A stretch of 48,751 bases of DNA from Candidatus Woesearchaeota archaeon (GTDB taxonomy: Archaea > Nanobdellota > Nanobdellia > SCGC-AAA011-G17 > PNOQ01). The notes under the pieces are model-generated. The model ran no database searches and had not been told where the DNA came from. It saw only the letters and a program-made list of their open reading frames with translations. Of the stretch, positions 226-34,100 are shown one piece after another (the first letter of the stretch is position 1; every line of letters starts with the position of its first letter). The position numbers and the translations under genes are program-made. Location: NCBI GenBank assembly GCA_964481835.1, contig CAYZTT010000003.1, positions 1 through 48,751 on the forward strand, written 5' to 3'.

Positions 226-627
226 ATGGGAGAGGCACTATATAACTGGATGTTAGAGGATGTTGAGGATCCTAACTGGAATACCCGCTTAGCGCTTGTT
301 AGGGAAACTGCTGTCAGTGGTCACCCGATAGATCTAGTTGCTTGTTTGCATAGGGTTGTTTTGGCTGCTGTTGAAAGAGATGGTGGTTCTGTAGAGTTGT
401 TTACCAAGGCGGGACTTGCATTTAGAGAGTTGGCTAGATCTTTAGATGGAGGAGTAGATTGCGGGTATGCCGCAAGAGATAGTTTAAGACATTCTTTGGA
501 GTTTTATGCTGAGACCGGGCTACCTTTCAATTATGAGGGGTTGTCTCAAGGAGAGATTATGGAATATCTTAGAGATTTAGATTCGGATATTTCTTTAAAG
601 GAGTTAAGAATTTCTGTAGATAGTTAA
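226..627 (+). CDS. hypothetical protein (133 aa, acidic, soluble)
   Basis: Clean ATG ORF with SD-like ccggagg upstream. No recognisable motif. By eye more G+C-rich and Ala/Arg/Gly-rich than the core genes. Confidence 0.5.
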   Translation: MGEALYNWMLEDVEDPNWNTRLALVRETAVSGHPIDLVACLHRVVLAAVERDGGSVELFTKAGLAFRELARSLDGGVDCGYAARDSLRHSLEFYAETGLPFNYEGLSQGEIMEYLRDLDSDISLKELRISVDS

Positions 628-651
628 CTTTATTAATGTATTTGATATTTA

Positions 652-873
652 TTGATTATGGAGAAATGGGCTAAAGTTTTGGGGATAATTTCTATTGTCA
701 TTTTAGTATTTTTGACAGTGGTATCTTTGATAACTTTTGTTCAGGTTAGTTTACTTAATTGGGATTCAATGGGGATGCTAATTGTTGGATTTTCTATCTG
801 GGTAGGCGGCATAATCATTGCTTTATGGTTGCTTGGATTTTTGATTGCTTGGATTATTAAAAAGGTTAAATAG
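652..873 (+). CDS. small membrane protein (two predicted TM helices)
   Basis: ORF with TTG at 652 or ATG at 658. Two long hydrophobic stretches (ILGIISIVILVFLTVVSLITFV and IVGFSIWVGGIIIALWLLGFLIAWII). Confidence 0.45.
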   Translation: MIMEKWAKVLGIISIVILVFLTVVSLITFVQVSLLNWDSMGMLIVGFSIWVGGIIIALWLLGFLIAWIIKKVK

Positions 874-878
874 TTAAA

Positions 879-886
879 TTTATAAA
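879..886 (+). promoter_or_regulatory. TATA box (TTTATAAA) of the RNase P RNA gene
   Basis: TTTATAAA ends 24 nt upstream of the predicted RNA 5' end at 910. The same octamer recurs upstream of many genes in this window. Confidence 0.45.
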
Positions 887-909
887 GTGTATTCTGGAGT
901 ATATAGATT

Positions 910-1208
910 GTAGGTAAGTGCCTGACTAACCTTTGAGGAGGAAAGTCCGCACACGAATATCGGTCGCTTTTTAAGTCGGGGAAACTCGAGGCAACCGTTC
1001 AGAAATGGCACGTCCTTGTGTTGTTAAACTATGAGGCTTGCGAAGTTCTCTGTGAGGAGGATAAGTTAACCAGCTGAGTAGACATAGGGGAACGATGAGA
1101 CAGCGGGGCACGACTTCGTGCAAGTTCGATTGGAACGCTTAGTCGAATGTCGGGATACACCGTCCATTCAAGTGGGGTGTTAACAGAATGCGGCTTACAC
1201 TTGCCTAC
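910..1208 (+). ncRNA. rnpB: RNase P RNA (archaeal type A-like, about 300 nt)
   Basis: CR-I GAGGAAAGTCCG at 938-949. CR-V ACAGAATGCGGCTTAC at 1183-1198. Terminal P1 helix GTAGGTAAGTG (910-920) pairs with CACTTGCCTAC (1198-1208). GC-rich relative to flanks; T-rich tract follows. Confidence 0.85.
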
Positions 1209-1254
1209 ACTTTCTTTTCAAAAACTTTATAAAGACTTTATTTGTATTCATTCT

Positions 1255-1425
1255 ATGGCAAAAGATCAAGTGAAATTACCTTCCGGGATGGGGGGATTAG
1301 TTCAATATTATGACGAATATAAGAGCAAGATTGAGTTTAAACCAGGAACGGTTATTTTGTTTATAATCTTGGTTATTTTAATTGAAGTTTTATTGCACTT
1401 ATATGGAAATGTTATTTTTAGCTGA
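1255..1425 (+). CDS. secG: preprotein translocase subunit Sec61-beta (archaeal SecG)
   Basis: From the ATG at 1255: MAKDQVKLPSGMGGLVQYYDEYKSKIEFKPGTVILFIILVILIEVLLHL. This matches the Sec61-beta pattern (P-S-x-x-G-L-x-x-Y/F-Y/F-D-E, then a single C-terminal TM). The track ORF start at 1147 lies inside the RNase P RNA and is rejected. Confidence 0.7.
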   Translation: MAKDQVKLPSGMGGLVQYYDEYKSKIEFKPGTVILFIILVILIEVLLHLYGNVIFS

Positions 1426-1427
1426 AA

Positions 1428-1748
1428 ATGATGCCCAATATGAACCCTAGACAGATGCAGAAGATGATGAATAAGCTAGGTATGAAACAAGAAGAAATAC
1501 CTGCTTCTGAAGTAATTATCAAGGGCCCGAAGGACATTATTATTAAAAATCCGCATGTAACTAAGGTTAATATGATGGGCCAGGAAACTTATCAGATAAC
1601 TGGGGACGCTTCTGAAGGATCAGGAATTTCTAAGGATGATGTTTTGACTGTTGCTACGCAAGCTGGAGTGGATGAATCTGACGCTCAAAAAGCTTTAGAA
1701 GAAAGTAATGGTGATTTAGCTGAAGCCATTATGAAATTGCAAAAATAG
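1428..1748 (+). CDS. nac: nascent polypeptide-associated complex protein (NAC domain + C-terminal UBA)
   Basis: N-terminus MNPRQMQKMMNKLGM, a NAC beta-barrel region, and a C-terminal UBA-like DAQKALEESNGDLAEAIMKL. Confidence 0.85.
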   Translation: MMPNMNPRQMQKMMNKLGMKQEEIPASEVIIKGPKDIIIKNPHVTKVNMMGQETYQITGDASEGSGISKDDVLTVATQAGVDESDAQKALEESNGDLAEAIMKLQK

Positions 1749-1782
1749 TTTTCTTTAAAAATAATAGTTAATTACCCTTATT

Positions 1783-2259
1783 GTGGAAGATTTTAAAGAT
1801 AGGTTCCAGGATTCTGTAAAACATTTGAAATTAGCTAGTCATATGTTGGGAGTTACTTATCCATTAGTTAAGGATCCAAGGATGTTTATTGGGATTCTTG
1901 AGAATCTGAGTAAATCCTTGAATGAATGCCTGGATAGTCTCTTATTGTATGAAAGGATGTACAAAAAGATTGGGCCGTATCCAGACAATTTTAATTCAAA
2001 ATTAGACCTTTTTAGGAGAATAATAAAAACTAGATATGACTTTGATGAAACATTGCCCCGGTTTATTTTTGAAATGGATCAATTAGTAAAGAACAGGCAG
2101 AAGGCCCCCGTGGAATTCTCTAGAAAAGGTGGATTTGTTATATGTGATTCAGAGTATAAGACCCGAATATTGAAAATTGAGGAGCTAAAAAGCTATATTT
2201 CAAAGGCAAAAGTTTTTATATTAAAAGTGCATAGTATTATTACACGGAGAACCCAGTAA
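1783..2259 (+). CDS. hypothetical all-helical protein (weak HEPN-like resemblance), paralog of the next gene
   Basis: GTG-start ORF. N-terminal LKLASHMLGV...LENLSKSLNECLDSLL parallels LKRADHLVYV...VKRLIESCNFVILALL of the next ORF. Its stop overlaps the next start (TAATG). Confidence 0.45.
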   Translation: MEDFKDRFQDSVKHLKLASHMLGVTYPLVKDPRMFIGILENLSKSLNECLDSLLLYERMYKKIGPYPDNFNSKLDLFRRIIKTRYDFDETLPRFIFEMDQLVKNRQKAPVEFSRKGGFVICDSEYKTRILKIEELKSYISKAKVFILKVHSIITRRTQ

Positions 2260-3797: not shown

Positions 3798-3870
3798 GGC
3801 GGTGGTAGTATAGTGGTTAGTACGGAGGCCTGTGGCGCCTCAGACCGGGGTCCGATTCCCCGTCACCGCT
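3798..3870 (+). tRNA. tRNA-His (anticodon GTG), atypical copy
   Basis: Manual cloverleaf. Encoded G-1 (3798); acceptor GCGGTGG/TCACCGC; U8; D stem GTAT/GTAC with one G-U pair. Anticodon stem GAGGC/GCCTC with loop CTGTGGC. T stem CGGGG/CCCCG. The T loop is TCCGATT (C at position 55) and the discriminator is T. No encoded CCA; followed by a T run. TATA-like TTTTAAAA at 3762-3769. Confidence 0.7.
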
Positions 3871-3913
3871 TTTTTATCAAAAACTACTTAAATTAGAGAT
3901 TTAATTTATTGAT

Positions 3914-4516
3914 ATGAAACTTGCTTTATTAGTGCCTTATGTTGCTATGATTATTGGGCTTTATATTTTTAAGAGCGGATGGGTTGCTTTCATTCTTTAT
4001 CACCTTTTGATTTTAGGATTTTTAATTTATAGTAAGAAACTAAGTTCTTGGAGAAATATGTTTAAGGGATTTAATTTGGGTTTTGCTTTTGGATCCATAT
4101 TGTTTGGATTAATGGGGGGAGTAATATTATATTTTTTGAGTCCATATGCAGGAATAGAATCTAAATTATCGATTGTTCTTGCTTCACTTGGATTGACAGG
4201 AGGAATATGGTTGGCCTTTGTGATATACCACTTTTTGATAAACTCCTGGTTTGAGGAATTTTTCTGGAGAGATTATTTGGGCAGTGATAAGAAAGGATTT
4301 GCTTTTTCTGATTTCGTTTTTGCAGGGTATCATTTGTTGGTTTTGGCCTTATTTTTGTCTTGGCCTTGGTTAATACTCTCTTTTGGCATTTTATCTCTTG
4401 CTGCGTGGTTTTGGAGGTATCTCAGAAGGAAGTATAATGGTTTGCTAATGCCTATCTTATCTCATATTGCTGCGGACGCGAGTATAATGTTGGTAGCTTA
4501 TTTCATTTCAATATAG
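3914..4516 (+). CDS. CPBP-family intramembrane metalloprotease (CAAX protease/Abi type)
   Basis: Polytopic membrane protein carrying the family motifs EEFFWRDYL (EExxxR), FAGYHLL (FxxxH) and SHIAADA (HxxxD/N). Confidence 0.75.
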   Translation: MKLALLVPYVAMIIGLYIFKSGWVAFILYHLLILGFLIYSKKLSSWRNMFKGFNLGFAFGSILFGLMGGVILYFLSPYAGIESKLSIVLASLGLTGGIWLAFVIYHFLINSWFEEFFWRDYLGSDKKGFAFSDFVFAGYHLLVLALFLSWPWLILSFGILSLAAWFWRYLRRKYNGLLMPILSHIAADASIMLVAYFISI

Positions 4517-4669: not shown

Positions 4670-4744
4670 GGCGGCGTTGGTTTAACGGTAGAACGTAGGA
4701 TTGTGGATCCTATAGTCCGGGTTCGATTCCCGGGCGCCGTCCCA
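4670..4744 (+). tRNA. tRNA-His (anticodon GTG), canonical copy with G-1:C73 and encoded CCA
   Basis: Manual cloverleaf. G-1 (4670); acceptor GCGGCGT/GCGCCGT; D stem GTTT/GAAC. Anticodon stem TAGGA/TCCTA with loop TTGTGGA. T arm CCGGG-TTCGATT-CCCGG. Discriminator C, then CCA, then T6 (4745-4750). Confidence 0.9.
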
Positions 4745-4773: not shown

Positions 4774-5937
4774 TTGGAGGTTAATAGAATGGAAACGGTA
4801 AAAGGATTTAAGGATTTTTTAGGAGAGGATGCGATTAAGAGGCAGAAGATAAAGGAAGTTTTAGTTAAGAACTTTAATTTGTATGGCTTTGAGCCAGCTG
4901 AGACCCCGATTGTGGAATATGAAGAATTTGTTAGGGGGGATAATGCTAATGATGAAGCCGTTTCTGATACTTTTAAATTAAAAGATAGAGGAAATCGGAA
5001 GTTAGCTTTGAGATATGAATTTACTTTTCAGTTGAAGAGGTTGGCTAAGAATAAGAAATTACCATCTAAAAGATACCAAATTGGAGAAGTTTTTAGGGAT
5101 GAGCCTATTTCGGGGAATAGATTTAGACAGTTTACACAATGCGATGTAGATGTTATTGGGTCTAGTATTAAAGATGAAGCAGAAATCTTGGCTTTGACAT
5201 TTAATGTTCTTAAGGAATTAGGAATTGATGCGGTTATTAATTTTAATAATAGGAAACTATTGAATGAGATTTTAGAGAAAGAAGGAGTTAAGAAAAAGGA
5301 AGAAGTTATTAGAGAGATTGACAAACTTGATAAGTTGTCTGAATCTGAAGTCAAGCAGAATCTAAAAAAGTTTAAGGCGGAGAATGTTTTATCAATATTT
5401 AAGAAACCTGAATCTTTTTTTGAGAAATATGGGTCTTTTGAAGAGGTTAAGAGTTTAAAGAAGCTTTGTGGATTTTATGGTGCAAAGATTAATTTTTTGC
5501 CTTCTTTAGCTAGGGGATTAAGTTACTATAATGGCAGTGTTTTTGAGATAAAAACTAAAGGAATAAAAGAGACTGTTTGTGCAGGGGGATCTTATTTAGT
5601 TGATGGATTTCAAAGCACAGGAATTTCTTTTGGTTTGGAAAGATTAAGTAAATTGGCTAAAGTTGATTTTGAAGATAACCGGGTTTTGGTTGTTGCTTTG
5701 AGTGAGAGCAAAGAACTGTTTAAGAATATACAGAAATTAAGAGATAATGGCATTAAATGTTCTGTTCTATTTGGCAAACCAAGCAAGGCACTGCAATATG
5801 CGAATAGTAAGGGTATAAAGTATGTGGTGTTTATAGGTGAGAAGGAACTCAAGAGTAAGAAGTTTATGCTGAAAGATATGATAAAAGGTAAAGAATCTAA
5901 TCTAGGTTTTGATGGATTAATAAAAAAATTAAAATAA
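4774..5937 (+). CDS. hisS: histidyl-tRNA synthetase (class IIa; alternative start ATG 4789)
   Basis: KGFKDFLGEDA N-terminus. Motif 2 EVFRDEPISGNRFRQFTQCDVDVIG. LRYEFT (His-A like). GGSY...GISFGLERL (His-B/motif 3 region). C-terminal HGTP anticodon-binding-like domain (VLVVAL...KYVVFIGEKE). Confidence 0.85.
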   Translation: MEVNRMETVKGFKDFLGEDAIKRQKIKEVLVKNFNLYGFEPAETPIVEYEEFVRGDNANDEAVSDTFKLKDRGNRKLALRYEFTFQLKRLAKNKKLPSKRYQIGEVFRDEPISGNRFRQFTQCDVDVIGSSIKDEAEILALTFNVLKELGIDAVINFNNRKLLNEILEKEGVKKKEEVIREIDKLDKLSESEVKQNLKKFKAENVLSIFKKPESFFEKYGSFEEVKSLKKLCGFYGAKINFLPSLARGLSYYNGSVFEIKTKGIKETVCAGGSYLVDGFQSTGISFGLERLSKLAKVDFEDNRVLVVALSESKELFKNIQKLRDNGIKCSVLFGKPSKALQYANSKGIKYVVFIGEKELKSKKFMLKDMIKGKESNLGFDGLIKKLK

Positions 5938-8597: not shown

Positions 8598-9746
8598 TTA
8601 TATTGCTTTTAAGTTATTGAGGTAATTAATAGTGCTTCGGGATTCTAGGTATTTAAGGTCAAGTCTTGTAAAGGAGATATAGTTGTATTCATCCCTTTCC
8701 CAGAGTATGCCAATTGTTTTGTCTGAGAGTATCGTCAAATCTGAATATGCGGCAGGTTCGAGGGCAACCATTAGTTCTTTGGGGAAGGTTTCTCCTTCAT
8801 CATAGCTAATTTTGGCTACTAGGTTGTTCCTTTCAGGACCTTTGGGTCCAGACCAAATAATTCGATCTCGATCATCATTCTCTGCTTTAAGTGTTAACCT
8901 TTCAATAGAAGAACTGCATGCAATGGCTTTCCTACTTTGGAATGCTTCTGACCAGGTCTCGCCCCTATCGTCACTAATTGCTTGTAACCTGATATTTCCG
9001 GATACCTGGCGTATATCCATGAGGATTCGACCGTCGTTTAATTCGACTAACTGATTTTCATTTCCTTGATGGCCTCTGGGAACAAATTCTCCCCTGTGCC
9101 AAGTTTCTCCATGATCATCACTGTAAATGGTAAATATATTGTAGGGGGTTTTCCAAGCAGGAAATAGTAATCGTCCATCACTAGTTTGTATGGCCCCCCC
9201 GGGCCCGATTATACTAGAATTCCAATTCCCATCTTCCATGTCCCTAGAAATATTTGTTAAATCGATTTGACTTGACCACGTCAATCCATTGTCTTCGCTG
9301 AAACGTGCAATGGTCTTTAGATCATCTGTCTTTGGTCTTGATGTAAGTGTGCTTTTGCCTGGCTTAGATTGATAATACAACACCCAAACTTTGTTGGTTT
9401 CTTTATCCACAAGTGTTGTAGGATTGGCGGCAGACCAAGCTTCGCCGGGGTCATCGATAACTTCCATTTTTGACCAGCTTTTTCCACTATCTGTACTTCT
9501 TTTTAGGACAAGATCAACATCTTGCTGACCAAATCCCGGATCTTGGCGACCATATTTGCGTGCCTCGGCAAAAGCAAGAAGCGTTCCGTCTGGGGCAGTT
9601 TCAATTGCAGGAATACGATAAAACCAGTACCCTTCCCCCGCAGTATAGACATCGACTTGTTCAACTAAAGAGGGCTGTTGGTTGGTAAGAATTGTGCTTA
9701 CTATTATTAGAATCAATATTATAAAAGCGAATGCAAATTTTTTCAT
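8598..9746 (-). CDS. membrane-anchored exo-alpha-sialidase-like glycoside hydrolase (GH33/BNR beta-propeller)
   Basis: N-terminal TM/signal (FAFAFIILILIIVSTIL). RIP motif in WFYRIPAIETAPDG. Five Asp-boxes (SxDxGxTW): STDSGKSW, SEDNGLTW, SDDHGETW, SDDRGETW, SYDEGETF. Confidence 0.8.
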   Translation of the reverse strand: MKKFAFAFIILILIIVSTILTNQQPSLVEQVDVYTAGEGYWFYRIPAIETAPDGTLLAFAEARKYGRQDPGFGQQDVDLVLKRSTDSGKSWSKMEVIDDPGEAWSAANPTTLVDKETNKVWVLYYQSKPGKSTLTSRPKTDDLKTIARFSEDNGLTWSSQIDLTNISRDMEDGNWNSSIIGPGGAIQTSDGRLLFPAWKTPYNIFTIYSDDHGETWHRGEFVPRGHQGNENQLVELNDGRILMDIRQVSGNIRLQAISDDRGETWSEAFQSRKAIACSSSIERLTLKAENDDRDRIIWSGPKGPERNNLVAKISYDEGETFPKELMVALEPAAYSDLTILSDKTIGILWERDEYNYISFTRLDLKYLESRSTINYLNNLKAI

Positions 9747-10072: not shown

Positions 10073-10120
10073 GTTCTTGATTTAGGAAACGTTTTTAAAT
10101 ATCTTTTTGTTTTTATTTAT

Positions 10121-11314
10121 ATGAAAAAAGAAGTGATTTTCTTGATATTCCTAGTTATTTGTATGCCTATATCTAATGCGAAGGTTTTGGAGATTCCTAA
10201 TGTCGGGGACAACGAAGAACCCGAACCCTTGAGAGACAGTATTGGAGTTAAGAAATTTGTTTACGCAGGGAATAATATTGTTGCTTCTGTTAAAGATTCT
10301 GAAATAAAATATTATCATAATGGTAGATTAAGTAATAGATTGACAACCAATTCGGCGGGGAATTTGCAAAAATTTAAATCGCTACCCTTTGGCCAGAAAG
10401 TTTCGAATTCCGGGGTAGATTACCCATTTACTGGAAAAGAGGAGGATGAAAGCTCTTTGTATTATTTTGGAGCCAGATATTATGATGATAATTTAGGGAG
10501 GTTTATAAGTGTGGATCCTGTTGAAGAAAATCATGCATATGCGTATGTGGAGAACAATCCAATGAATAAAATAGATCCAAATGGAATGGAAAGCTGGACA
10601 TTGAATCAGCAGAACATATTTGAGGAGCCGCCGGCATGGGTTGGCGAGAAAGTTGGAGAGGTAATATATAATTCTTTGTGGGGGGATGTTAGAGATACTA
10701 ATTCAGAGATAAGATTTTATAATCTCCCTTTTGATGCTTATGGTTTTTCTAACTCTGGAACCGGGGGGGCTTGGGTAGACTTTGGAAGTGGAAATTTGGT
10801 TAATGGCATGGGGATCCATATGTATGAAGATATTGATTTAAGGAGAATGGCGGGAGAATTAAGCTATTTAGAAGATTTGAATGAGAATAAGGAAGAGATT
10901 GCAATTTCGACGATACTTGCCTTGGCAGCGTATGGTATTGCTGCCTCTCCCAGAGGGGTAAAACCTGGAGGGAATTCGCTGAAGGTGGATATTTCCAAAG
11001 CTAATCGGCAAAGTGGTTCTTGGCTTAAAGGCGATTGTCCAAATAGAGTTCCGCCTTGTCAAAATGCCCGATGTACAGATCAAGCGATGCGTTCGGGGGA
11101 ACTCAATGCAAATTCGGGGGGAGGATATAGTCCGCAGGCCAGATATGCTTCTAGGCATGCCCAAAAGATTGCGACAGAGTGTTTTGAGAGTGGAGTTAAT
11201 TGTCCGCTTGCAGGATCATTGGATGAAGCTCTTTCCCTTTTGGAGCAACTAGAGGCACAAGCATATCAACAACAGTTGGCGTTACCTGCTGTTGTGGAGG
11301 GTGTGGAGTTTTAG
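10121..11314 (+). CDS. secreted polymorphic-toxin-like protein 1: signal peptide + minimal RHS repeat-associated core + unique 241-aa C-terminal domain
   Basis: Signal MKKEVIFLIFLVICMPISNA. Core YYHNGRLSNR...SLPFGQ...YPFTGKEEDESSLYYFGARYYDDNLGRFISVDPVEENHAYAYVENNPMNKIDPNGM (RHS-core pattern RYYDxxxGRFxxxDP...NxYxYxxNNPxxxxDPxG). Similarity to the paralogs ends at nt 10588. Confidence 0.8.
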   Translation: MKKEVIFLIFLVICMPISNAKVLEIPNVGDNEEPEPLRDSIGVKKFVYAGNNIVASVKDSEIKYYHNGRLSNRLTTNSAGNLQKFKSLPFGQKVSNSGVDYPFTGKEEDESSLYYFGARYYDDNLGRFISVDPVEENHAYAYVENNPMNKIDPNGMESWTLNQQNIFEEPPAWVGEKVGEVIYNSLWGDVRDTNSEIRFYNLPFDAYGFSNSGTGGAWVDFGSGNLVNGMGIHMYEDIDLRRMAGELSYLEDLNENKEEIAISTILALAAYGIAASPRGVKPGGNSLKVDISKANRQSGSWLKGDCPNRVPPCQNARCTDQAMRSGELNANSGGGYSPQARYASRHAQKIATECFESGVNCPLAGSLDEALSLLEQLEAQAYQQQLALPAVVEGVEF

Positions 11315-11383
11315 GTGCCGTTTATTTTGTAGGTTTTTGATAAAGACGTTAACTTTTTATATTCTATATTTCTTTATTGGTTT

Positions 11384-12544
11384 ATGAAAAAAGAAGTGAT
11401 TTTATTAGTGTTTTTTATCTGTATACCTATTTCTTATGCAGAGGTTATTGATATTCCAGAAACAGGCATGCCTCCTGGTTCGGAAGGGAGATTTGGAACT
11501 ACTAGGTTTGTTTATGCTGGGAATGATATTGTTGCTAGTATCCATGATTCCTATACAAGATACTTTCATCGAGATAGATTGAGTAATAGATTGTTGACTG
11601 GTTCGGTTGATGAAGATATTAGGATGTTTAAGTCGCTGCCTTTTGGGCAAGAAATTGAGAACCAAGAAATAAGTTATCCATTCACTGGAAAAGAGGAAGA
11701 TGAAAGTTCTTTGTATTATTTTGGTGCTAGATACTATGATGACAATTTAGGGAGATTTACTGGCGCAGATCCTGTTTTGGAGAATCATGCTTATTCGTAT
11801 GTTAGAAATAACCCAATGAACCTTATTGATCCTACCGGGATGGATGATAGCAAGGCAAATAAAGTGGAATCCCTGTATTTTTATTCTGTAGATACCTCTG
11901 GGATTTCAAGATACCGGCCCATAGACATGAATCCTCTTTTTATAGATACTTTTGCGACTGATCCTTCAGACACAACTAATATGCGCAGATTTGAAGATTA
12001 TTTAGATTCTATGATTGTCGCAGCTTCTCAAGACACTACTGGGGGCGGGGGCCAATTTGGAGTGGCGGATAGATCTGATTATTATTCTGCTATCTATTTA
12101 GCCGAACCAGATACATTGCATGCAGTTTCTTCATATGATCTTAGTGCAATCCCCATTATTGTGAAGGAATTTGCTGAACAAAATTCTCCTATTGAAAATC
12201 TTATTATTACATTTCATGGCATGCCACTTGATTCGATATGGCAGGCCAATTCAGGCATTGCACAAGATTATGCAGTCTTTGCACAAGCTTCGGATAGTAC
12301 CGCATCCCTTTATTCTGCGGAATCTATGAATGAGATTTTCTTTAACATTGATCCTGCACACCTTGCAGACAATTCTAGGATAATATTTGGGACATGTTAT
12401 GGTTCCTTTTGTGTTGATTCTCAAGCAATCGCAGATTCATTAGATACATCTGTTTATACTGCCACTAGTACTGTTACTGAGAACATACTTATTTATCCCA
12501 CATTAGTTTGGGGAAATTATGATCGGTATCATCCTAAAAATTAG
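11384..12544 (+). CDS. secreted polymorphic-toxin-like protein 2: signal peptide + minimal RHS core + unique 233-aa C-terminal domain (possible His/Cys peptidase)
   Basis: Same N-terminal module (YPFTGKEEDESSLYYFGARYYDDNLGRFTGADPVLENHAYSYVRNNPMNLIDPTGM, ending at nt 11842). The C-terminus is unrelated to copies 1 and 3 and contains LIITFHGMP ... RIIFGTCYGS. Confidence 0.8.
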   Translation: MKKEVILLVFFICIPISYAEVIDIPETGMPPGSEGRFGTTRFVYAGNDIVASIHDSYTRYFHRDRLSNRLLTGSVDEDIRMFKSLPFGQEIENQEISYPFTGKEEDESSLYYFGARYYDDNLGRFTGADPVLENHAYSYVRNNPMNLIDPTGMDDSKANKVESLYFYSVDTSGISRYRPIDMNPLFIDTFATDPSDTTNMRRFEDYLDSMIVAASQDTTGGGGQFGVADRSDYYSAIYLAEPDTLHAVSSYDLSAIPIIVKEFAEQNSPIENLIITFHGMPLDSIWQANSGIAQDYAVFAQASDSTASLYSAESMNEIFFNIDPAHLADNSRIIFGTCYGSFCVDSQAIADSLDTSVYTATSTVTENILIYPTLVWGNYDRYHPKN

Positions 12545-12548
12545 ATTA

Positions 12549-12953
12549 TTATTTCAAATCAACCCTTCTGTACTCAGGGGAAAATTCTGCCTTGCCATCT
12601 TCAACATTTACAACGTACTTTATCTCTAATATGAAATCTTGGTCCCCATAAGTTATTTGGTAAAGATATCCTGGATCAGTATCCAATCCGTTTGGGATGC
12701 TATCTAATCTTCCTGTAGCCAATAGACTGTCTAGAGAATCAATTCTTTGTGCTACTTCTTGGCCAAACTCTATTTCATCCATCCTGGTAGCCAAATAGTG
12801 ATTTAGGGCGATTTCAAGGAATAAATCTTCAAAATTAGGGCATTGGGCACTTTGTACTGTTTCTTGTGTGCTTGGTGCTGAAATTGCGGGAGAAGCTATC
12901 CCTAGCGCTAAGGTAGATAATGTTAATCTCCCAATTAATGCTCCTTTTTTCAT
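12549..12953 (-). CDS. secreted hypothetical protein (134 aa)
   Basis: Signal-like N-terminus MKKGALIGRLTLSTLALGIASPAISA. Acidic mature part with no known motif. Convergent with toxin 2, 4 nt apart. Confidence 0.5.
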   Translation of the reverse strand: MKKGALIGRLTLSTLALGIASPAISAPSTQETVQSAQCPNFEDLFLEIALNHYLATRMDEIEFGQEVAQRIDSLDSLLATGRLDSIPNGLDTDPGYLYQITYGDQDFILEIKYVVNVEDGKAEFSPEYRRVDLK

Positions 12954-23137: not shown

Positions 23138-23219
23138 TTTGTAGTAATCTATCGGTAGTTACACTATTTATAAAGCTTTCTATAGTTAGCTTTTTATATT
23201 TAGCCTGTTAATAAATTTT

Positions 23220-24467
23220 ATGAAAAAGGGAGCGATTATTCTGATTTTTTTGATCATTTGTATATCTATTTCGCATGCGAGAGTCATTTATGTTCCAGGG
23301 GTAGAAGAACCTGAACAACTCAGAGATGAATTTGGGACAAAGAAGTTTGTTTATGCGGGCAATAATATTGTCGCGTCTGTTAAAGATTCTGGGGTTGAAT
23401 ATTATCATCAAGGAAGGTTAAGTAATAGGATTACTACGGATTCTGGAGGGGTCAAAGAGAGTGAATTTAAATCATTACCTTTTGGACAGAATGTTTTGAA
23501 CACAGGAGTTGATTATCCGTTTACTGGGAAGAAAGAGGATGAAAGTTCTTTGTATTACTTTGGAGCGAGATATTACGATGATAATTTAGGCAGGTTTATT
23601 TCTGTTGATCCTGTTAGAGAAAACGAGCCCTATTCTTATGTTAGAAATAATCCAATTATGCTAGTGGACCCCACCGGAATGGATGAAGAAGGGGTTCCCC
23701 CTGTTATGTCTCATGAATTTGGTATTGATCACCTAATGAATCAAGAAACACAGGATTTCTTGAATAGAAATGACCCTGAGTATATGATGAATAGATTTTA
23801 TGAAGAAAGATATCTCCAAATGGAACAAGGGAAAGAACAATTAAATCTCATTGTACCCTATAGGTCGCTCAGACGAATAAATGAAGCCCACATGCGCGGT
23901 GAGCAAGCAGATGTTGGAGATTATGTTAACTTCATTTCCGCAGGAATGCTATGGGCCACTGGATTGATAAAAGCAGGAAATGCAATGAGAGGGTTATCTT
24001 TTGGTAGATTAGGTAGTGTCCGAACACCAAGCAATTTAGGCAGAGGTATGCCTGTAAGAAGCAGCAATCTAATTGAATCTCTTGAAACTGGATTAAAAGG
24101 CGAAAGAAAGAGTTTACCTGAAGTATTGAAAGTATTTGATGATCATTTAGCATCAGGAGCCTTGGATCCAATTTCTCATCAAGCATATGTTGAAGGAACT
24201 GTAGAGCTGGCGTTCACTGAAGTGCAAGGCCATGTAGTTTCTCCGCATACTGCCGCAAGGCTTATGGTCAGAGCTTCACAGAATGGCCTGGCTACTAATG
24301 CTGCATCACCTGCTACAGGTGGTCGAAACATAATGAGTAGCATTCTATCTGAAGGTAAACAAACAGTATATAGCAATGGAGCCATCGAATACAACTTAAA
24401 TAATAATCTCTTGATTATTAGAGAACCTGAAACTAGTATGATTTCAACATTCATAAGTAGACAATAA
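23220..24467 (+). CDS. secreted polymorphic-toxin-like protein 3: signal peptide + minimal RHS core + unique 261-aa C-terminal domain
   Basis: Signal MKKGAIILIFLIICISISHA. Core YPFTGKKEDESSLYYFGARYYDDNLGRFISVDPVRENEPYSYVRNNPIMLVDPTGM ends at nt 23681. The C-terminus is unrelated to copies 1 and 2. Confidence 0.8.
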   Translation: MKKGAIILIFLIICISISHARVIYVPGVEEPEQLRDEFGTKKFVYAGNNIVASVKDSGVEYYHQGRLSNRITTDSGGVKESEFKSLPFGQNVLNTGVDYPFTGKKEDESSLYYFGARYYDDNLGRFISVDPVRENEPYSYVRNNPIMLVDPTGMDEEGVPPVMSHEFGIDHLMNQETQDFLNRNDPEYMMNRFYEERYLQMEQGKEQLNLIVPYRSLRRINEAHMRGEQADVGDYVNFISAGMLWATGLIKAGNAMRGLSFGRLGSVRTPSNLGRGMPVRSSNLIESLETGLKGERKSLPEVLKVFDDHLASGALDPISHQAYVEGTVELAFTEVQGHVVSPHTAARLMVRASQNGLATNAASPATGGRNIMSSILSEGKQTVYSNGAIEYNLNNNLLIIREPETSMISTFISRQ

Positions 24468-24472
24468 AAAAA

Positions 24473-24916
24473 TTATTTTTCAGCCATATACTCCACGACT
24501 TTCGCAATGTATTCAGACATTTTTTCTCTTGGCATAGCATCATTGTCCCCAAGAACAACTTCAATCAATACATTCTCAATACCATCAACCTCTGTTCTAA
24601 TAAGTTCAAGGTTTGCATGATAGTGATCACATATGTCCTGTGCCGTGACTGATTCATCTTCCAAATACATTTCACACATCTTCTTCAATTGAGAAACTGG
24701 TTCCATCGAGTATTCAGTAGCTTCTGCTCTTTCACCCATGACAAATACTGAGTATGGACTTCCTTTCTTAGTGAACAAATCCATCTCCACATCGCCATCT
24801 CGTTCAACAGTCTGAGAGTAATCCAGACCAAAGACAACATCTTCTACGTTACTGCCTTTATCATAGACAAAACCATCAATTTCAATTTGTTCTGCTTGCA
24901 TTTTTTCGTCTAACAT
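24473..24916 (-). CDS. hypothetical acidic protein (147 aa)
   Basis: Start reassigned to the ATG at 24916, 1 nt after the upstream stop and preceded by AAGGGGGG. The longer track ORF (to 25060) would overlap the nucleotidyltransferase gene by 143 nt. Confidence 0.5.
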   Translation of the reverse strand: MLDEKMQAEQIEIDGFVYDKGSNVEDVVFGLDYSQTVERDGDVEMDLFTKKGSPYSVFVMGERAEATEYSMEPVSQLKKMCEMYLEDESVTAQDICDHYHANLELIRTEVDGIENVLIEVVLGDNDAMPREKMSEYIAKVVEYMAEK

Positions 24917-24917
24917 T

Positions 24918-25721
24918 TTATAACCCCCCTTTTCTATGTTCAATAAGATAATCATTAAGTTTTTCATAACCAGGCTTTTCTGGTAGAGTAGATTCTTGCA
25001 AAGCATTCTCCAACTCTCCCTCCAGTCTGTTAAGTGTTTCTGCCAATTCTTTTCTGTCATAACTTATCGGATCCCCAATTTCTGATTGTCTCTTATCATC
25101 AATCATTCTTTCTACAATAGGCACATCATACAACATAGCTAATTCAGCAACATCAGGTTGAACTTCACCAGTTTTAAGTAAATGAATTCCTGTAAGCATG
25201 GCTCTGACCGCATACAAATCTGTCTTTACAGATTGTTCTTCTGTTCTACCACCTTCTGCCAAATTTCTCGAAAAGTTCAAGTAATGATTGAACAATGCCT
25301 TACTAACACCTGATTCCAGAACAGTCTCCCTGAATTCCTGAAATTCTGGAGACTCATAGATAATTATTGAGTTCTGCCACTCCAACCTGTTTCCATTAGA
25401 GTTGGCAATCAGGCTTAGATAATGGCCGATTTCATCCAACGCAATATCAATTGTCCTATCTTCGCTCATATGCGAGAATGTTCGATCCGGTGTTTTCTTG
25501 ATACCTAAGAAGTCTTCAGTTGGAGCTTTGAATACTCCTCTGATGTCGTAATCGCTATCTTCTGAGGGAAACCCATAGCTGTGAGCGCCTGTAAGGGCTA
25601 GAAATATGATATTTCCCTGAGCATTCATCTCATCAACTAAATCTCTCTTGTCTAGCTCAGAGAGCACTTTCTCTCTCAAATCTTGCTCAGTTCTATTAAA
25701 TCTACTATTAGTTGATTTCAT
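24918..25721 (-). CDS. predicted nucleotidyltransferase (Pol-beta superfamily, RlaP/PF10127-like)
   Basis: IIFLALTGAHSYGFPSEDSDYDIRGVF fits the G-[SA]-x-x-Y-G...SDxDxxG signature of this family. Confidence 0.65.
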   Translation of the reverse strand: MKSTNSRFNRTEQDLREKVLSELDKRDLVDEMNAQGNIIFLALTGAHSYGFPSEDSDYDIRGVFKAPTEDFLGIKKTPDRTFSHMSEDRTIDIALDEIGHYLSLIANSNGNRLEWQNSIIIYESPEFQEFRETVLESGVSKALFNHYLNFSRNLAEGGRTEEQSVKTDLYAVRAMLTGIHLLKTGEVQPDVAELAMLYDVPIVERMIDDKRQSEIGDPISYDRKELAETLNRLEGELENALQESTLPEKPGYEKLNDYLIEHRKGGL

Positions 25722-30413: not shown

Positions 30414-31160
30414 TTAAAATATTTCTGATAGCCAGGAGAAGAATTTTGCTAGGATATTTGGGCTTTTTTGGACAGTTTTTTTATCTGAAGAGGCATATGG
30501 CCTTAGGCTATAGATATTTTGATTGCCCTCGCCCTCTTTACAATCTGGATCTAGATAGTCTAGGCAATCGGGATCACATTTTTTATCTTTTTTTCCATCG
30601 CAATATGTATCCTTTTCGCCGCTTGGACAATCTGATGGGCAATTTTTGTTGTTCTCTCTAATTTTTCCATTACAATAGCCATCTTCTTTACATTTGATTT
30701 CTAAATATTTTTTCTCAGAACTTGTGATTGTTATATCTCCTGAAGAGTCTTTTACTTGTATTTCTGGTAATTCTATTGTTCCGGAACTTGGGATTATTTC
30801 ATAGATAGTTTCTATTGTTATCTCCTTAGTTTCCTTGGGGCCAATTGTTAATGTGTACTCTAAATAGGGTTCTCTGATATCCGTTTCTGTGTGTTTTTTT
30901 ATTTCTGCTCCGATACTTGAAGTTATTGATTCTCCCATAGCATAGTTTGTGTCTCTTGTAATTTTAATTTCTTTTTCTATATCTTCTAAGTTTTCTATTA
31001 TGAATGAAAGTTCTATTGGTTCATTTACTATTGCGCTTGTTTTTGTAGATTCGAAATACTTTGCATTCATCGTTGCAGCGTGAGTGCTTGTTGCTAGAAG
31101 GATTAATAATAAAGTCCCAGTGATTAGTTTTGCTTTTTTATGTTCCATTTTTATTCGCAT
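30414..31160 (-). CDS. secreted protein with Cys-rich C-terminal module (alternative start 31148)
   Basis: Signal AKLITGTLLLILLATSTHA. A beta-rich middle region. C-terminal CKEDGYCNGK...CPSDCPSGEKDTYCDGKKDKKCDPDCLDYLDPDC echoes the DPDC-type Cys motifs of the upstream giant protein. Overlaps or abuts its stop. Confidence 0.6.
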   Translation of the reverse strand: MRIKMEHKKAKLITGTLLLILLATSTHAATMNAKYFESTKTSAIVNEPIELSFIIENLEDIEKEIKITRDTNYAMGESITSSIGAEIKKHTETDIREPYLEYTLTIGPKETKEITIETIYEIIPSSGTIELPEIQVKDSSGDITITSSEKKYLEIKCKEDGYCNGKIRENNKNCPSDCPSGEKDTYCDGKKDKKCDPDCLDYLDPDCKEGEGNQNIYSLRPYASSDKKTVQKSPNILAKFFSWLSEIF

Positions 31161-34100
31161 TCCAATCTGTCACAGTTTTCACTTGAACAGATATTTCCTC
31201 CGCTATCTATCAATGCCCCATCTTCGTTTTGACAGTATATCTCTTGACTCTGGTCACTTATAATCTCATTCCCATATAGTGTTAGGAATAAGTAATTATC
31301 TTCAATATAATCCTCTATATCTATGCAGATTTCGCAGCCTATACCGTTTTCTATTTTATTCTGAATTATATTTTCCGTTAAGTGTATTCTTTCATTGTCG
31401 TATACAGTTCTACCATCGTGAGAATAACCACTTATGTTTATAGTGGTGTTTATTAATTCGTTGTATGAGACTGAGGTTTTATTTGAATTTTCTATTAATA
31501 TACCAACTCTTGGGATTCCCTGATTACTTATGATTTTATTGCTTGTTATCCAAGTGCGCTCAGGTCCGATTTCCTTTGCTTTTATTGAGATTATATTATT
31601 TTTTAGTATGTTGCTACTCAACACATTTTGATACGGTGATTCTGAGGTTACCTCTGGGAAATTAACTCCAACCCCCCAATTAGAAAGATTCAGATAGTCG
31701 ACTCCCACATCTCCGTGCCCGTTGAAATCTATCCCGATTTTTGAGTTGCAATTTGGCCCTACACAGTTTATTTGGGTTTCTCCTTGATCAAGAGCTATTA
31801 TCTCTATATCATCTGCACCGATGACTATGCCTTCTTCGAGGTTGAAAACCCCTGGACAGAATGTTGTACTTTCGGTTAGTATCATGCCGCTTGTAGGTGT
31901 GGTGTAACTGCAGGCATCTGAGCAATCTAAGTTATCGCAATTATCACTGTCACATATGTTTGAACCATAATGGGCATCTACTATTGGCTCTGCAGGGTTT
32001 TGGCAATAGATATCTATGTTTCCATTGTTTGAAATTGTGTTTTGGGCGATTTTTACAAACCTTTCTTCCTCGAGAGAGTTTAGGTTTATCTTTATACCAT
32101 GGTTGAGAGTATCGAAATCGTTTTCTATAGTGTTGTTCTCAACTTTTATCCCATCTGTATTTGAACCCTCGAGAGTAATCATAGAGTTTTTTATTATATT
32201 ATGACTTATTTTGCTATATTCAGAAGGATTTCCTGTGACATTGATTAAATGTATTTCGTTTGGCCTGCTTGGGTCATCACTATTAAAATTGGAATACCAT
32301 ACTTCTATGCTTGAGTTCTTTACACCCGTCTTTATTGCTTTTATACTATTATTTATTGTGATTTCTTCTATATCTACTTCTGGAGATACTTCAGTTTCAT
32401 CTCCTTCCTCATGTGTTTTTATGCCAGTCCCCCATCCGTTTAAAGTTATATCCCTTATGGATATTCCATCTTTCCCATTTGTGTTTATGCCTGTTTGCGA
32501 ATCGCAATTTGGGCCTATGCAGTTTATGATTGCTCCATTTCCATCTATCTCTTGTCCATCTAATAGGAATGTTAAGCCTTCTTCTAGATTGTATTCTCCT
32601 GGACATAGGTAAGTTATTTCATCGGTTAATATCAATCCGTCCTGGGGGATTGTGTCCATGCAGGCCAAGTCGCAACCATAAATATTTTCTCGGGCCCAAT
32701 AATCTGCCTCGTAGTCTGAAAAATCGAAGTGTTGGTTTTCGTGTCCTATTTCAAATCTTACATCAAATAATCTGGGTATTTCGCCGATATCCCAACAATA
32801 ATGTATGTTGGTGCCTAAGACACTTTGAGCAACAGCGTCTGCCACATTTTCGACCTTCTTTCCATAATCATATACAACCCATTTTCCAACTTCAAAATCA
32901 TATATTAGATTCCAGGTGTGAAATCCTCCTCCTATAGAGAGTACTAGATCTCCGTCTTGGTCGTTGGCTGGGAAATATCCCGTTTTCCTTAGTAGCGAGG
33001 TTGCTGCAAATGACCAATCATCGCACACACCAGTTTTTAGTGTTGCTAAGGTTGTTTTTGCTGGCTGTTCCCTGTGTTTACATAATCCCGGAGTTCTAGG
33101 TCCAGGGCAATCCATATATTGTACTTCTTCACCGAAGACGTAAAGAGTGTCCCAATCATAGTAGGGATTTGCGCAATGGTTATTCTCGGGGGAATGATTC
33201 CCCCATCCCTCTTGACAGGCATCTTCGAATCTGCCCCTTAATGGGTTGTACCAACCCATGTCTTGTACCTCGCAGCAATATTCTGGGGTGAAATAGTTCC
33301 ACATCCATAATTCGTCATCTAGGTGGTGGATGGGCCTTTTAAAGCCCCAATTTAGATTGGTTTCTATATATTCCCTTAGGCATCCCGTCATTCTCCTTTG
33401 GTGAGTTGGGTATTGGAAAGAATTAAGTTTTGCGTGATAGCAAATTTCTGTGTTTCTATTGTTGATAATTCTCATATCCCCTGGTTCGTTTTCACAACAG
33501 TCTAAGGCGTCATCTATTATATAATCCATATAATTTGCTTCTTCGTCTTCAATGTCGCTTCTTACAGTCATTAAACTACAAGAATCTCTTTCTCCAGATT
33601 CAGTAAACCAGTTGTATAGGTGAACTACATAGTTTCCTTGGTAATTGCTCACACAATTTGTATCTTCTGGTTCGTGGGGAGTTATACATTGGCAATTATA
33701 ACAAAATCCTTCATTACAATCTTCCCCATAAGGCTCACACTCTTCTCCAATAGTTATTTCTTCTTCGAGGCTCTCAAATGTAATTGTTTCGGTCGTTACT
33801 TCCCCATCTCCGCAATAAAAACCCATTATTTTATTCGAATTTGTTTTTCCCACGTTTAATGTGCCTTCAATATTTTCAAAAAAGCAATCTTCACGATCAC
33901 ATAATAGGTCATATTCGGTGTTGTTTTCTATGTAATTGTATCCATCTATTTCTACACCCCATGCTTTCAGATACAGGCCAACGTGGGCGTTATCTCTAAT
34001 TATGTTGTTTCGTAGACGTATATCTCCTACTTTATCGAATAAGAGGGCTGAACGATACCTTGGGACTATAGTTCCTGCGCCGGCAAACAAACCTTCAGTG

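Follow-up and report, generated by a model that had tools for sequence, protein, structure and literature searches.

Within a 48,751-nucleotide (nt) stretch of DNA from a Candidatus Woesearchaeota archaeon (contig CAYZTT010000003.1 of assembly GCA_964481835.1; the whole stretch is called the window hereafter), we describe three genes, namely a tandem pair (genes 1 and 2) and a third, separate copy (gene 3), as members of a family of proteins predicted to be exported. Each protein starts with a predicted signal peptide, continues with a module of about 110 amino acids (aa) that corresponds to the C-terminal end of the shell in Rhs/Tc toxins, and ends in a C-terminal region of its own. We consider it probable (roughly 0.68) that genes 1-3 encode lineage-specific, multi-copy polymorphic effectors, most likely toxins, that are exported by Woesearchaeota-type DPANN archaea.

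Three predicted exported proteins with a common N-terminal module

Genes 1 and 2 are the two adjacent open reading frames (ORFs) of 397 and 386 aa that had drawn attention in an earlier inspection of the bare sequence (the sequence-only reading). Both proteins open, as claimed there, with a predicted signal peptide; namely, MKKEVIFLIFLVICMPISNA followed by K in gene 1 and MKKEVILLVFFICIPISYA followed by E in gene 2 fit the Sec pattern. Gene 3 lies 11 kb from genes 1/2, beyond the region considered in that inspection, and was found by an hmmsearch of the six-frame window ORFs with a profile of the N-terminal module (E = 3.7e-74); the signal peptide pattern of its product is MKKGAIILIFLIICISISHA followed by R. 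The parts of the three genes and the gene adjoining gene 2 are listed below.

10092-10100 (+): TATA-like box of gene 1, TTTTTAAAT, 20 nt upstream of the ATG (by inspection and regular expression)
10121-11314 (+): gene 1, an ORF of 397 aa composed of signal peptide, RHS plug module, post-core domain, hydrophobic segment, and Cys-containing tip
10121-10180 (+): predicted Sec-type signal peptide of gene 1, with a basic n-region, a hydrophobic core, and a small-x-small site
10256-10588 (+): final YD-type hairpin and RHS repeat-associated core of gene 1, aa 46-156 (TIGR03696 and structure-profile matches)
10559-10588 (+): putative cleavage motif of gene 1, P147-MNKI-D152-P-N-G155-M156 (consensus PxxxxDPxG), with autoproteolysis predicted after M156
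10589-10891 (+): pre-toxin-like post-core domain of gene 1 (domain A), aa 157-257, beginning with ESWTLNQQNIF (BLASTP to family proteins P0025 and P0141)
10892-10951 (+): Ala/Gly-rich hydrophobic segment of gene 1, aa 258-277, EEIAISTILALAAYGIAASP, between domain A and the tip
10952-11311 (+): variable tip of gene 1, aa 278-397, with C306, C313, C318, C354, and C361 kept in orthologs
11354-11362 (+): TATA-like box of gene 2, TTTTTATAT, 21 nt upstream of the ATG, within a 69-nt spacer
11384-12544 (+): gene 2, an ORF of 386 aa with a predicted signal peptide (aa 1-19), the module (aa 42-153; TIGR03696), and an unrelated C-terminus of 233 aa
11507-11842 (+): YD hairpin and RHS core of gene 2, ending in P144-MNLI-D149-P-T-G152-M153
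11843-12541 (+): C-terminal domain of gene 2, aa 154-386, with His278 (TFHGMP) and Cys338 (FGTCYG)
12549-12953 (-): convergent gene for an exported protein of 134 aa, 4 nt after gene 2, a candidate partner
23191-23199 (+): TATA-like box of gene 3, TTTTTATAT, 20 nt upstream of the ATG
23220-24467 (+): gene 3, 415 aa, with the module at aa 43-154 ending in PIMLVDPTGM and an unrelated C-terminus of 261 aa (hmmsearch)

A protein identical to that of gene 1 is also called on JGI and Logan contigs. In all three genes, a TTTTTA(A/T)AT box ends 20-21 nt before the ATG, and its role as a promoter is read from the archaeal TATA consensus. The box of gene 2 is located inside the 69-nt spacer, and gene 2 would therefore have a promoter of its own; together, the boxes suggest three independent transcripts with little or no leader.

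In terms of export, the N-termini of 112 out of 132 family representatives satisfy a crude, rule-based criterion for signal peptides. The possibility of lipoproteins was considered and dismissed, since no lipobox stands before the Cys of the signal peptide, and the family as a whole does not retain this Cys. Right after the signal peptide (10181-10252 in the window), we also noticed a moderately conserved segment, A-x-V-I-D-I-P-x-V…, which is specific to the archaeal family, is missing in the bacterial short forms described below, and could serve as a sorting or docking signal.

The module corresponds to the self-cleaving end-piece of the Rhs/Tc shell

When compared by BLASTP, the proteins of genes 1 and 2 are 61% identical over aa 1-164 (E = 3e-66), with nothing significant beyond. 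The sequence-only reading had placed the end of this similarity at DPxGM; indeed, M156 (nt 10588) of gene 1 and M153 (nt 11842) of gene 2 are the last residues of the shared N-terminal part of ~155 aa, and the motif quoted there, YPFTGKEEDESSLYYFGARYYDDNLGRF...DPV.ENHAY.YV.NNPMN.IDP.GM, was found in both proteins. As the point at which variable sequence begins, this junction is valid for the pair of genes 1 and 2 but not within the lineage of gene 1, where the variable junction is located further downstream, after a shared post-core domain of ~100 aa and the hydrophobic segment.

The module had been proposed to be an RHS repeat-associated core, and this assignment was well supported by a search with hidden Markov models. 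TIGR03696 (Rhs_assc_core) matched aa 89-156 of gene 1 with 73.2 bits (E = 1.9e-20) and aa 86-153 of gene 2 with 69.9 bits (E = 1.9e-19), both well above its curated cutoff of 32.5 bits, and was the only match of the whole genes 1/2 in Pfam and NCBIfam. Furthermore, a profile of the module matched 25 solved structures. In every case it aligned to the very C-terminus of the shell, roughly the last 100 residues, and ended at the cleavage site; these structures include TcdB2-TccC3, YenC2 (634-690 of 690), RHS2, Tse5, Rhs cores, teneurin-like proteins, and SGS1. Long RHS proteins of bacteria and archaea (1450-1900 aa) also align, at ~1250-1450, to residues ~40-157 of the module. In Rhs/Tc toxins, this C-terminal plug constitutes the aspartyl autoprotease domain (PMC8636562, PMC8765631).

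The rest of the shell was not detected in genes 1-3. The module begins at aa ~45, directly behind the signal peptide and a linker of ~25 aa; only ~40 residues, corresponding to one hairpin, precede the core, and no Pfam match to RHS_repeat (PF05593) was obtained for genes 1-3, in agreement with the earlier claim that the YD shell is missing. As judged from these alignments, the archaeal proteins keep solely one YD-type hairpin and the C-terminal plug, ~110 aa in total.

Residues required for the proteolysis in YenC2 are retained in the module. Autoproteolysis of YenC2 depends on R650, D663, and D686 (Busby et al. 2013, as cited in PMC8455502), and these residues correspond to R119, D132, and D152 of gene 1 in a residue-level alignment to YenC2 634-690. 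The consensus of the cleavage site is PxxxxDPxG(W/L/F) (PMC8765631), and P147…D152-P-N-G155-M156 of gene 1 fits PxxxxDPxG; its P1 residue is Met, as is M690 at the end of YenC2 (DPDGM). Across an alignment of 148 members, R119 and D132 are invariant, D152, P153, and G155 are conserved in more than 90%, and the residue following the Gly of DPxG is Met in 73 of 140 members. From these conserved residues and the motif, we predict self-cleavage after DPxG-M.

A large family with highly diverse tails

The profile of the module was searched with HMMER exhaustively over 1.84 billion representative proteins, where the RHS core in general was commonest in bacteria (197,418 hits). At E < 1e-30, at least 324 representative clusters were obtained, and the best 150 were nearly all 340-450 aa in length with the module at residues 1 to ~160; a few related proteins carry N-terminal extensions, and one carries RHS repeats. 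When 138 tails (median, 240 aa) were cut at DPxG, they fell into 99 groups between which BLASTP gave no link at 1e-5. The N-terminal module thus stands in front of many different C-termini, and the view of a conserved handle with a swappable tail, first taken from the two genes of the window, holds for the family as a whole.

About 120 of 148 tails have no match to any Pfam family. Among those with a match are Pesticin (a lysozyme-like toxin), Peptidase_M15_4, NLPC_P60, LysM, Peptidase_C39_2, and Ntox47, as well as the pre-toxin domains PT-HINT and PT-TG, and the tail at one GTDB locus gave a weak match to CHAP.

We also scanned the species-representative genomes of GTDB and considered the best 80 loci. 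Matches to the whole module, signal peptide included, were limited to metagenome-assembled genomes (MAGs) labelled Candidatus Woesearchaeota, "archaeon" (SI037_bin53 and SI048_bin40), Nanoarchaeota, and one Methanosarcinales, with roughly 2-6 copies detected per such MAG, and bacterial matches span residues ~45-157 alone. Short proteins composed of signal peptide, core, and tail were nonetheless present in a few bacteria, namely KSB1 (L058), Nitrospirota (L080, a tandem pair), and Deltaproteobacteria (L056); the minimal architecture is therefore not strictly archaeal, although it is not expanded in those bacteria. In IMG/VR no match was found, and a link to viruses is thus unsupported.

Exchange and inheritance of the tails

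Tail replacement was observed in two neighbouring genes of one Woesearchaeota MAG, L026a and L026b. Their first ~390 nt are 100% identical, their cores are ~88% identical, and they become unrelated straight after the DPxG codons; this pattern shows cassette exchange with a recombination breakpoint at the core. Shuffling further downstream was also evident. Domain A of gene 1 is 58% identical to P0025 and 44% to P0141 in that part only (BLASTP), and domain A and the hydrophobic segment together reappear in these two proteins under different tips; the tip of P0141 in turn reappears in P0041 behind another post-core domain, and P0039 has an inserted HINT domain. Domain A itself has no Pfam match. 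Segments equivalent to EEIAISTILALAAYGIAASP were found in P0025, P0141, P0041, and P0069, and that of gene 1 is moderately hydrophobic, under the KD19 threshold of 1.6, and not a confident transmembrane helix.

Within the window, three different tails are attached to the module, and the tails of genes 1 and 2 are unrelated by BLASTP; a simple pair of paralogs with homologous C-termini, which would have spoken against cassette variation, was hence not what we found. Recent gene conversion between genes 1 and 2 was considered and rejected: at the DNA level their modules share 68% identity, synonymous differences are spread over the whole length, and the longest identical stretch measures 20 nt.

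Both genes of the tandem pair, each with its tail, are also kept between PIN_9 and gyrB in two more lineages, at 68-76% protein identity. The orthologs of gene 1 in L005 and L007 are 72-76% identical to it, and those of gene 2 (P0016-P0019) are ~70% identical with an unchanged architecture. With dS saturated, the ratio of nonsynonymous to synonymous substitutions (dN/dS) is 0.05-0.3 for modules and tails, indicating purifying selection; gene 1 shows 0.05-0.3 in every part, and gene 2 shows 0.13-0.25 in the core and C-terminus and 0.45-0.61 in the part comprising the signal peptide and linker. All of these parts gain amino-acid changes roughly 2-8 times faster than gyrB.

At one further locus (L060, 4559-5656; Candidatus Woesearchaeota CAZTYO010000018.1), a chimeric ORF stands directly behind a normal family gene. 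Its first ~70 aa are the N-terminus of GyrB (76% identical to GyrB of the window), followed by an RHS core (…HYFGARYYDSDLGKFTSVDP…) and a tail; this would be either an assembly artefact at the repeated module or a real recombination into gyrB.

Tails of the window

For the C-terminal regions of genes 1-3 (CT1-CT3), similarity searches yielded few leads. CT3 has a weak link to P0098 only, and a tblastn search of plasmids with CT2 and CT3 gave no match. In the tail of gene 2, His278 and Cys338 are invariant in three aligned orthologs, each behind a hydrophobic stretch; we take the resemblance of these motifs to a clan-CD-like Cys/His hydrolase, which is drawn from three 70%-identical sequences, as a lead only. 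The tip of gene 3 was also considered as a BECR/DUF4258-like RNase from its C-terminal pattern and was set aside with no support from hidden Markov models.

Candidate partners

Canonical immunity genes were not observed; namely, no small co-directional ORF follows gene 1, 2, or 3 among the window ORFs, and a six-frame scan with the module profile revealed no orphan core fragments inside the window. Behind gene 2, however, stands the convergent gene for the exported 134-aa protein, which has no Pfam match and is kept next to gene 2 in L005, L007, and L093 at 77-84% identity. Of the roughly 26 family genes whose downstream region was readable, eight (gene 2 and those at seven other Woesearchaeota loci) are followed by a convergent small exported or membrane protein, and three are followed by co-directional small exported proteins. 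At L019/L026a, furthermore, the putative toxin and its convergent partner have been duplicated together, with the toxins 53% and the partners 50% identical. Because convergent exported neighbours recur and one such pair has been co-duplicated, it is plausible that the 134-aa protein is a cognate partner of gene 2, for example an extracytoplasmic immunity protein.

Some other neighbours of family genes are worth describing. Gene 3 is followed by a convergent acidic ORF of 147 aa (24473-24916), seemingly operonic with a gene for an RlaP nucleotidyltransferase (24918-25721). Small, beta-rich exported proteins ending in aromatic residues adjoin family genes at L022 (1431-1874, -), L032 (5200-5658, -), and L010 (4749-5237, -); one of them has a weak match to OMP_b-brl (PF13505), and outer-membrane-like barrels are unexpected in an archaeon. 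The L010 contig (JGI Ga0105000_1007544), from which P0025 derives, is DPANN-like and also carries archaeal PTH2; at 485-2069 (+), it has two tandem genes for prolipoprotein diacylglyceryl transferase (LGT, PF01790) together with Hint/intein fragments.

Host and neighbouring genes

The window had been ascribed to an archaeon, and this is supported by Rfam, which places archaeal RNase P RNA at 910-1208 and the terminal 3' part of the archaeal large-subunit (23S) rRNA at 1-150, as well as by the archaeal housekeeping genes flanking the family members (Rpb7, Spt4, S24e, S27e, aIF2-gamma, S6e, and aIF5B). The G+C content of the window is 33-39%, an ortholog of gene 2 is tagged "[archaeon]" by NCBI, and histidyl-tRNA synthetase of the window is 68% identical, with the gene order kept, to the enzyme of a MAG that carries the name Candidatus Woesearchaeota in GTDB. 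By these sequence comparisons, the host is close to Candidatus Woesearchaeota MAGs. Besides housekeeping genes, the neighbours of genes 1/2 include a PIN_9 gene and gyrase. A dedicated delivery context (PAAR/VgrG/type VI secretion system (T6SS), TcA, type VII secretion system, or wall anchor) was not found, and the Sec-type signal peptide is the sole feature at the N-terminus.

Several other features of the window were also noted. A secreted BNR/sialidase-like beta-propeller protein is encoded at 8598-9746 (-; PF13088, E = 4e-28, and a partial match to PF24316, Tli3); its gene sits between rpb7 and PIN_9 in the window lineage only and is missing from the syntenic loci L005 and L007. Two tRNA-His(GTG) genes (3798-3871 and 4671-4744, +) bracket an ORF for an Rce1-like membrane protease (3914-4516), and the pair is directly upstream of the histidyl-tRNA synthetase gene (4774-5937). 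The called Sec61-beta ORF (1147-1425, +) shares its first ~60 nt with the RNase P RNA (+ strand, 112.6 bits), and the true start codon of Sec61-beta is hence probably further downstream. A 1472-aa ORF at 31151-35569 (-), with only a weak NosD/beta-helix match (E = 1.8e-4), probably encodes a giant surface protein; it was considered as a separate shell for the short proteins and rejected as NosD-like and not a YD protein.

Proposed mechanism and alternative explanations

Based on these features, we propose that each gene would be transcribed from its own TATA box with a minimal leader or none and that the protein would be exported by Sec through its signal peptide. R119, D132, and D152 would then cut after DPxG-M and free a C-terminal region of ~200-270 aa. 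This region is often modular, with a tip that follows a pre-toxin-like domain and a hydrophobic segment. The conserved module may double as homologous sequence for the exchange of tails between copies, and the small convergent exported protein behind some members, gene 2 included, might be a cognate partner or an immunity factor. Targets are probably other cells, either a host or bacterial neighbours, given that some family tails are peptidoglycan hydrolases or binders. Murein-degrading enzymes and pore-forming toxins have also been indicated for Woesearchaeota in the literature (PMC9723730, PMC12352652), and together with the peptidoglycan-directed tails, these reports point to bacteria as one class of target. 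If the target were absent from the producer, the many members with no immunity candidate would be explained. From the export through the cocoon-free self-cleavage to the toxicity, the targets, and the role of the partner, these steps are what we infer from sequence.

A bolder version of this proposal, which we put forward tentatively and with the odds against it, is that the plug is an autonomous, cocoon-independent self-cleaving module and that such proteins form the main exported arsenal of Woesearchaeota, a cross-domain or host-directed weapon with no classical immunity since its targets are absent from the producer. The arsenal would then comprise hundreds of tail types, mostly of unknown fold, directed against, e.g., bacterial peptidoglycan, envelopes, or host-specific structures.

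Several observations weigh against the proposal that genes 1-3 encode exported toxins. In known Rhs/Tc proteins, the plug acts inside the cocoon (PMC8636562, PMC8765631). No toxin domain can be assigned to the tails of the window, as CT1, CT2, and CT3 had no Pfam match even at E = 10 and only noise (E ≥ 0.07) in sequence and profile searches of the PDB; in database searches, homologs of CT1 and CT2 were limited to orthologs of the same lineage and P0025. AlphaFold2 models of full-length genes 1/2, made with alignments of 22-23 sequences, were unusable, with a mean predicted local distance difference test (pLDDT) score of 35.8 and 36.1, respectively. The tails at the window locus are stably inherited over three lineages with no recent swap, and the Ig-like modules Por_Secre_tail and FlgD_ig, as well as LysM, in some tails of the family would also fit adhesion. 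Gene 1 lacks any candidate immunity gene, ~10 of the ~26 readable family genes have housekeeping genes directly downstream, and a metagenome scan found two close relatives of the 134-aa protein, with its linkage to gene 2 seen within the shared synteny alone.

Some of these points are also those expected if the proteins were non-toxic and served at the cell surface or in the interaction with a host: the plug would then be an uncleaved handle with a structural, anchoring, or oligomerising role, and the tails would be adhesins, binders, or scavenging enzymes of an episymbiont. The binding and Ig-like tails, the missing canonical immunity genes, and the purifying selection on the stable tails of the window locus agree with this explanation, as do teneurins, which retain the same plug uncleaved (PMC8765631). 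Invariant R119 and D132 and the highly conserved D152-P-x-G in 148 divergent members are, however, hard to explain for a structural handle; also, genuine toxin and pre-toxin domains occur in the family (Pesticin, Ntox47, PT-HINT, and PT-TG), and its extreme turnover of tails with a breakpoint at the core is the signature of a conflict system. We thus regard a non-toxic role as rather unlikely, though it is the strongest of the alternatives.

Still less probable would be a split Rhs system, in which the short proteins are TcC-like cargo: their plug would fit into a YD-repeat shell, or a different carrier, made from a gene elsewhere in the genome, and this carrier would enclose and deliver the tail. 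The Tc cocoon is in fact built from two polypeptides, TcB and TcC (PMC8765631), the plug is buried in the shell in every solved structure, and the few relatives with N-terminal extensions or RHS repeats are consistent with such an arrangement. No YD-repeat protein is present in the 48.7-kb window, however, and none was seen in 22 mapped Woesearchaeota loci; in the GTDB scan, the matches labelled Woesearchaeota within the top 80 loci are all short, and each short protein has its own signal peptide and would hence be exported unfolded and alone.

That the genes are decayed leftovers, namely orphan Rhs C-terminal cassettes, truncated bacterial pseudogenes, or bacterial contamination, might be considered from the prevalence of the RHS core in bacteria and from the short orphan ORFs starting within the core in bacterial rhs loci (L049, L073, L077, L079, and L088), but this is effectively refuted by the synteny in three lineages, the genes' own TATA boxes, and the dN/dS of 0.05-0.3, in addition to their location among archaeal housekeeping genes on a contig with archaeal RNase P RNA and 23S rRNA, their complete signal-peptide starts and conserved length, and the existence of hundreds of clusters.

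Comparison with known systems

The proposal of exported polymorphic toxins can also be set against the criteria for this class of proteins (Zhang et al. 2012). A conserved N-terminal part with hypervariable C-termini was found in the family, and replacement of the tail at the junction was found in L026a/L026b; a downstream co-directional immunity gene and orphan cassette arrays were not. The domain itself is already known, and NCBI has given one ortholog the label "RHS repeat-associated core domain-containing protein". We found no paper tying DPANN archaea or Woesearchaeota to RHS-core proteins in a literature search that did not cover Makarova et al. 2019 (mBio, archaeal polymorphic toxins), which may mention the family. 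What may be new is a large family, multi-copy and restricted to DPANN archaea, with a shell-less architecture, a plug that might act with no cocoon, and the lack of canonical immunity genes.

DPANN archaea carry tiny genomes and probably live on other cells, and very few molecules by which they act on partners or prey have been described. With several genes per ~1-Mb genome (three in the 48.7-kb window) and a turnover of the conflict type, the family described here offers candidates for such molecules. It also raises a question in the Rhs field, namely whether the aspartyl-protease plug can fold and cut outside the cocoon; if so, the module would be a compact (~110 aa) self-cleaving tag. The family is furthermore a reservoir of uncharacterised effector domains.

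A close parallel is seen in the classical Rhs/WapA/TcC toxins, which share with the archaeal family the homologous plug, the R/D/D residues, the PxxxxDPxG motif, the variable region right behind this motif, and the breakpoint at the core. Classical members have a YD shell of ~1000 aa and a length of 1400-1600 aa, whereas the archaeal proteins are shell-less, ~400 aa long, and carry the module directly behind the signal peptide. The archaeal family also differs from classical Rhs in having no N-terminal plug, no PAAR/VgrG/T6SS/TcA context, and no adjacent co-directional immunity gene, and its tails (~240 aa) are longer than the typical encapsulated Rhs-CT.

Orphan cassettes of bacterial Rhs resemble the archaeal genes as short ORFs composed of the core end and a variable tail, with the core DNA as the substrate for recombination. 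These orphans, however, start inside the core, have neither signal peptide nor promoter, and rely on a neighbouring full-length rhs gene, whereas the archaeal genes are complete, individually promoted as far as their TATA boxes tell, and scattered among housekeeping genes with no master rhs gene nearby. The bacterial short forms (L058, L080, and L056) have the same minimal architecture at 300-430 aa, in tandem in the case of L080, but match the query at ~55-157 only, lack the post-signal segment …V-I-D-I-P-x-V…, and are isolated cases among the best 80 loci.

In terms of overall design, the family is also similar to MafB toxins of Neisseria, which consist of a signal peptide, a lineage-specific conserved N-domain, and a polymorphic C-terminal toxin (Zhang et al. 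2012, PMC3482391); common to both are the Sec signal, the N-domain expanded in a lineage, several paralogs per genome, and hypervariable tails. The N-domain of MafB is MafB-N/DUF1020, while in the archaeal family its place is taken by an RHS plug that is predicted to act as a built-in release protease; MafB genes also have MafI immunity genes and cassette arrays downstream, neither of which was seen for the archaeal family.

Polymorphic toxins have been considered generally rare in archaea, and classical RHS ones have been noted in a few of them, e.g., the "classical stalked" form in Methanosarcina acetivorans (PMC3482391). Long archaeal RHS versions were also found here in Theionarchaea (L042) and Bathyarchaeota (L049). 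The archaeal RHS toxins noted previously are full-length proteins equipped with RHS repeats, cassettes, and immunity genes in the manner of bacteria, whereas the family in Woesearchaeota is shell-less and much more numerous.

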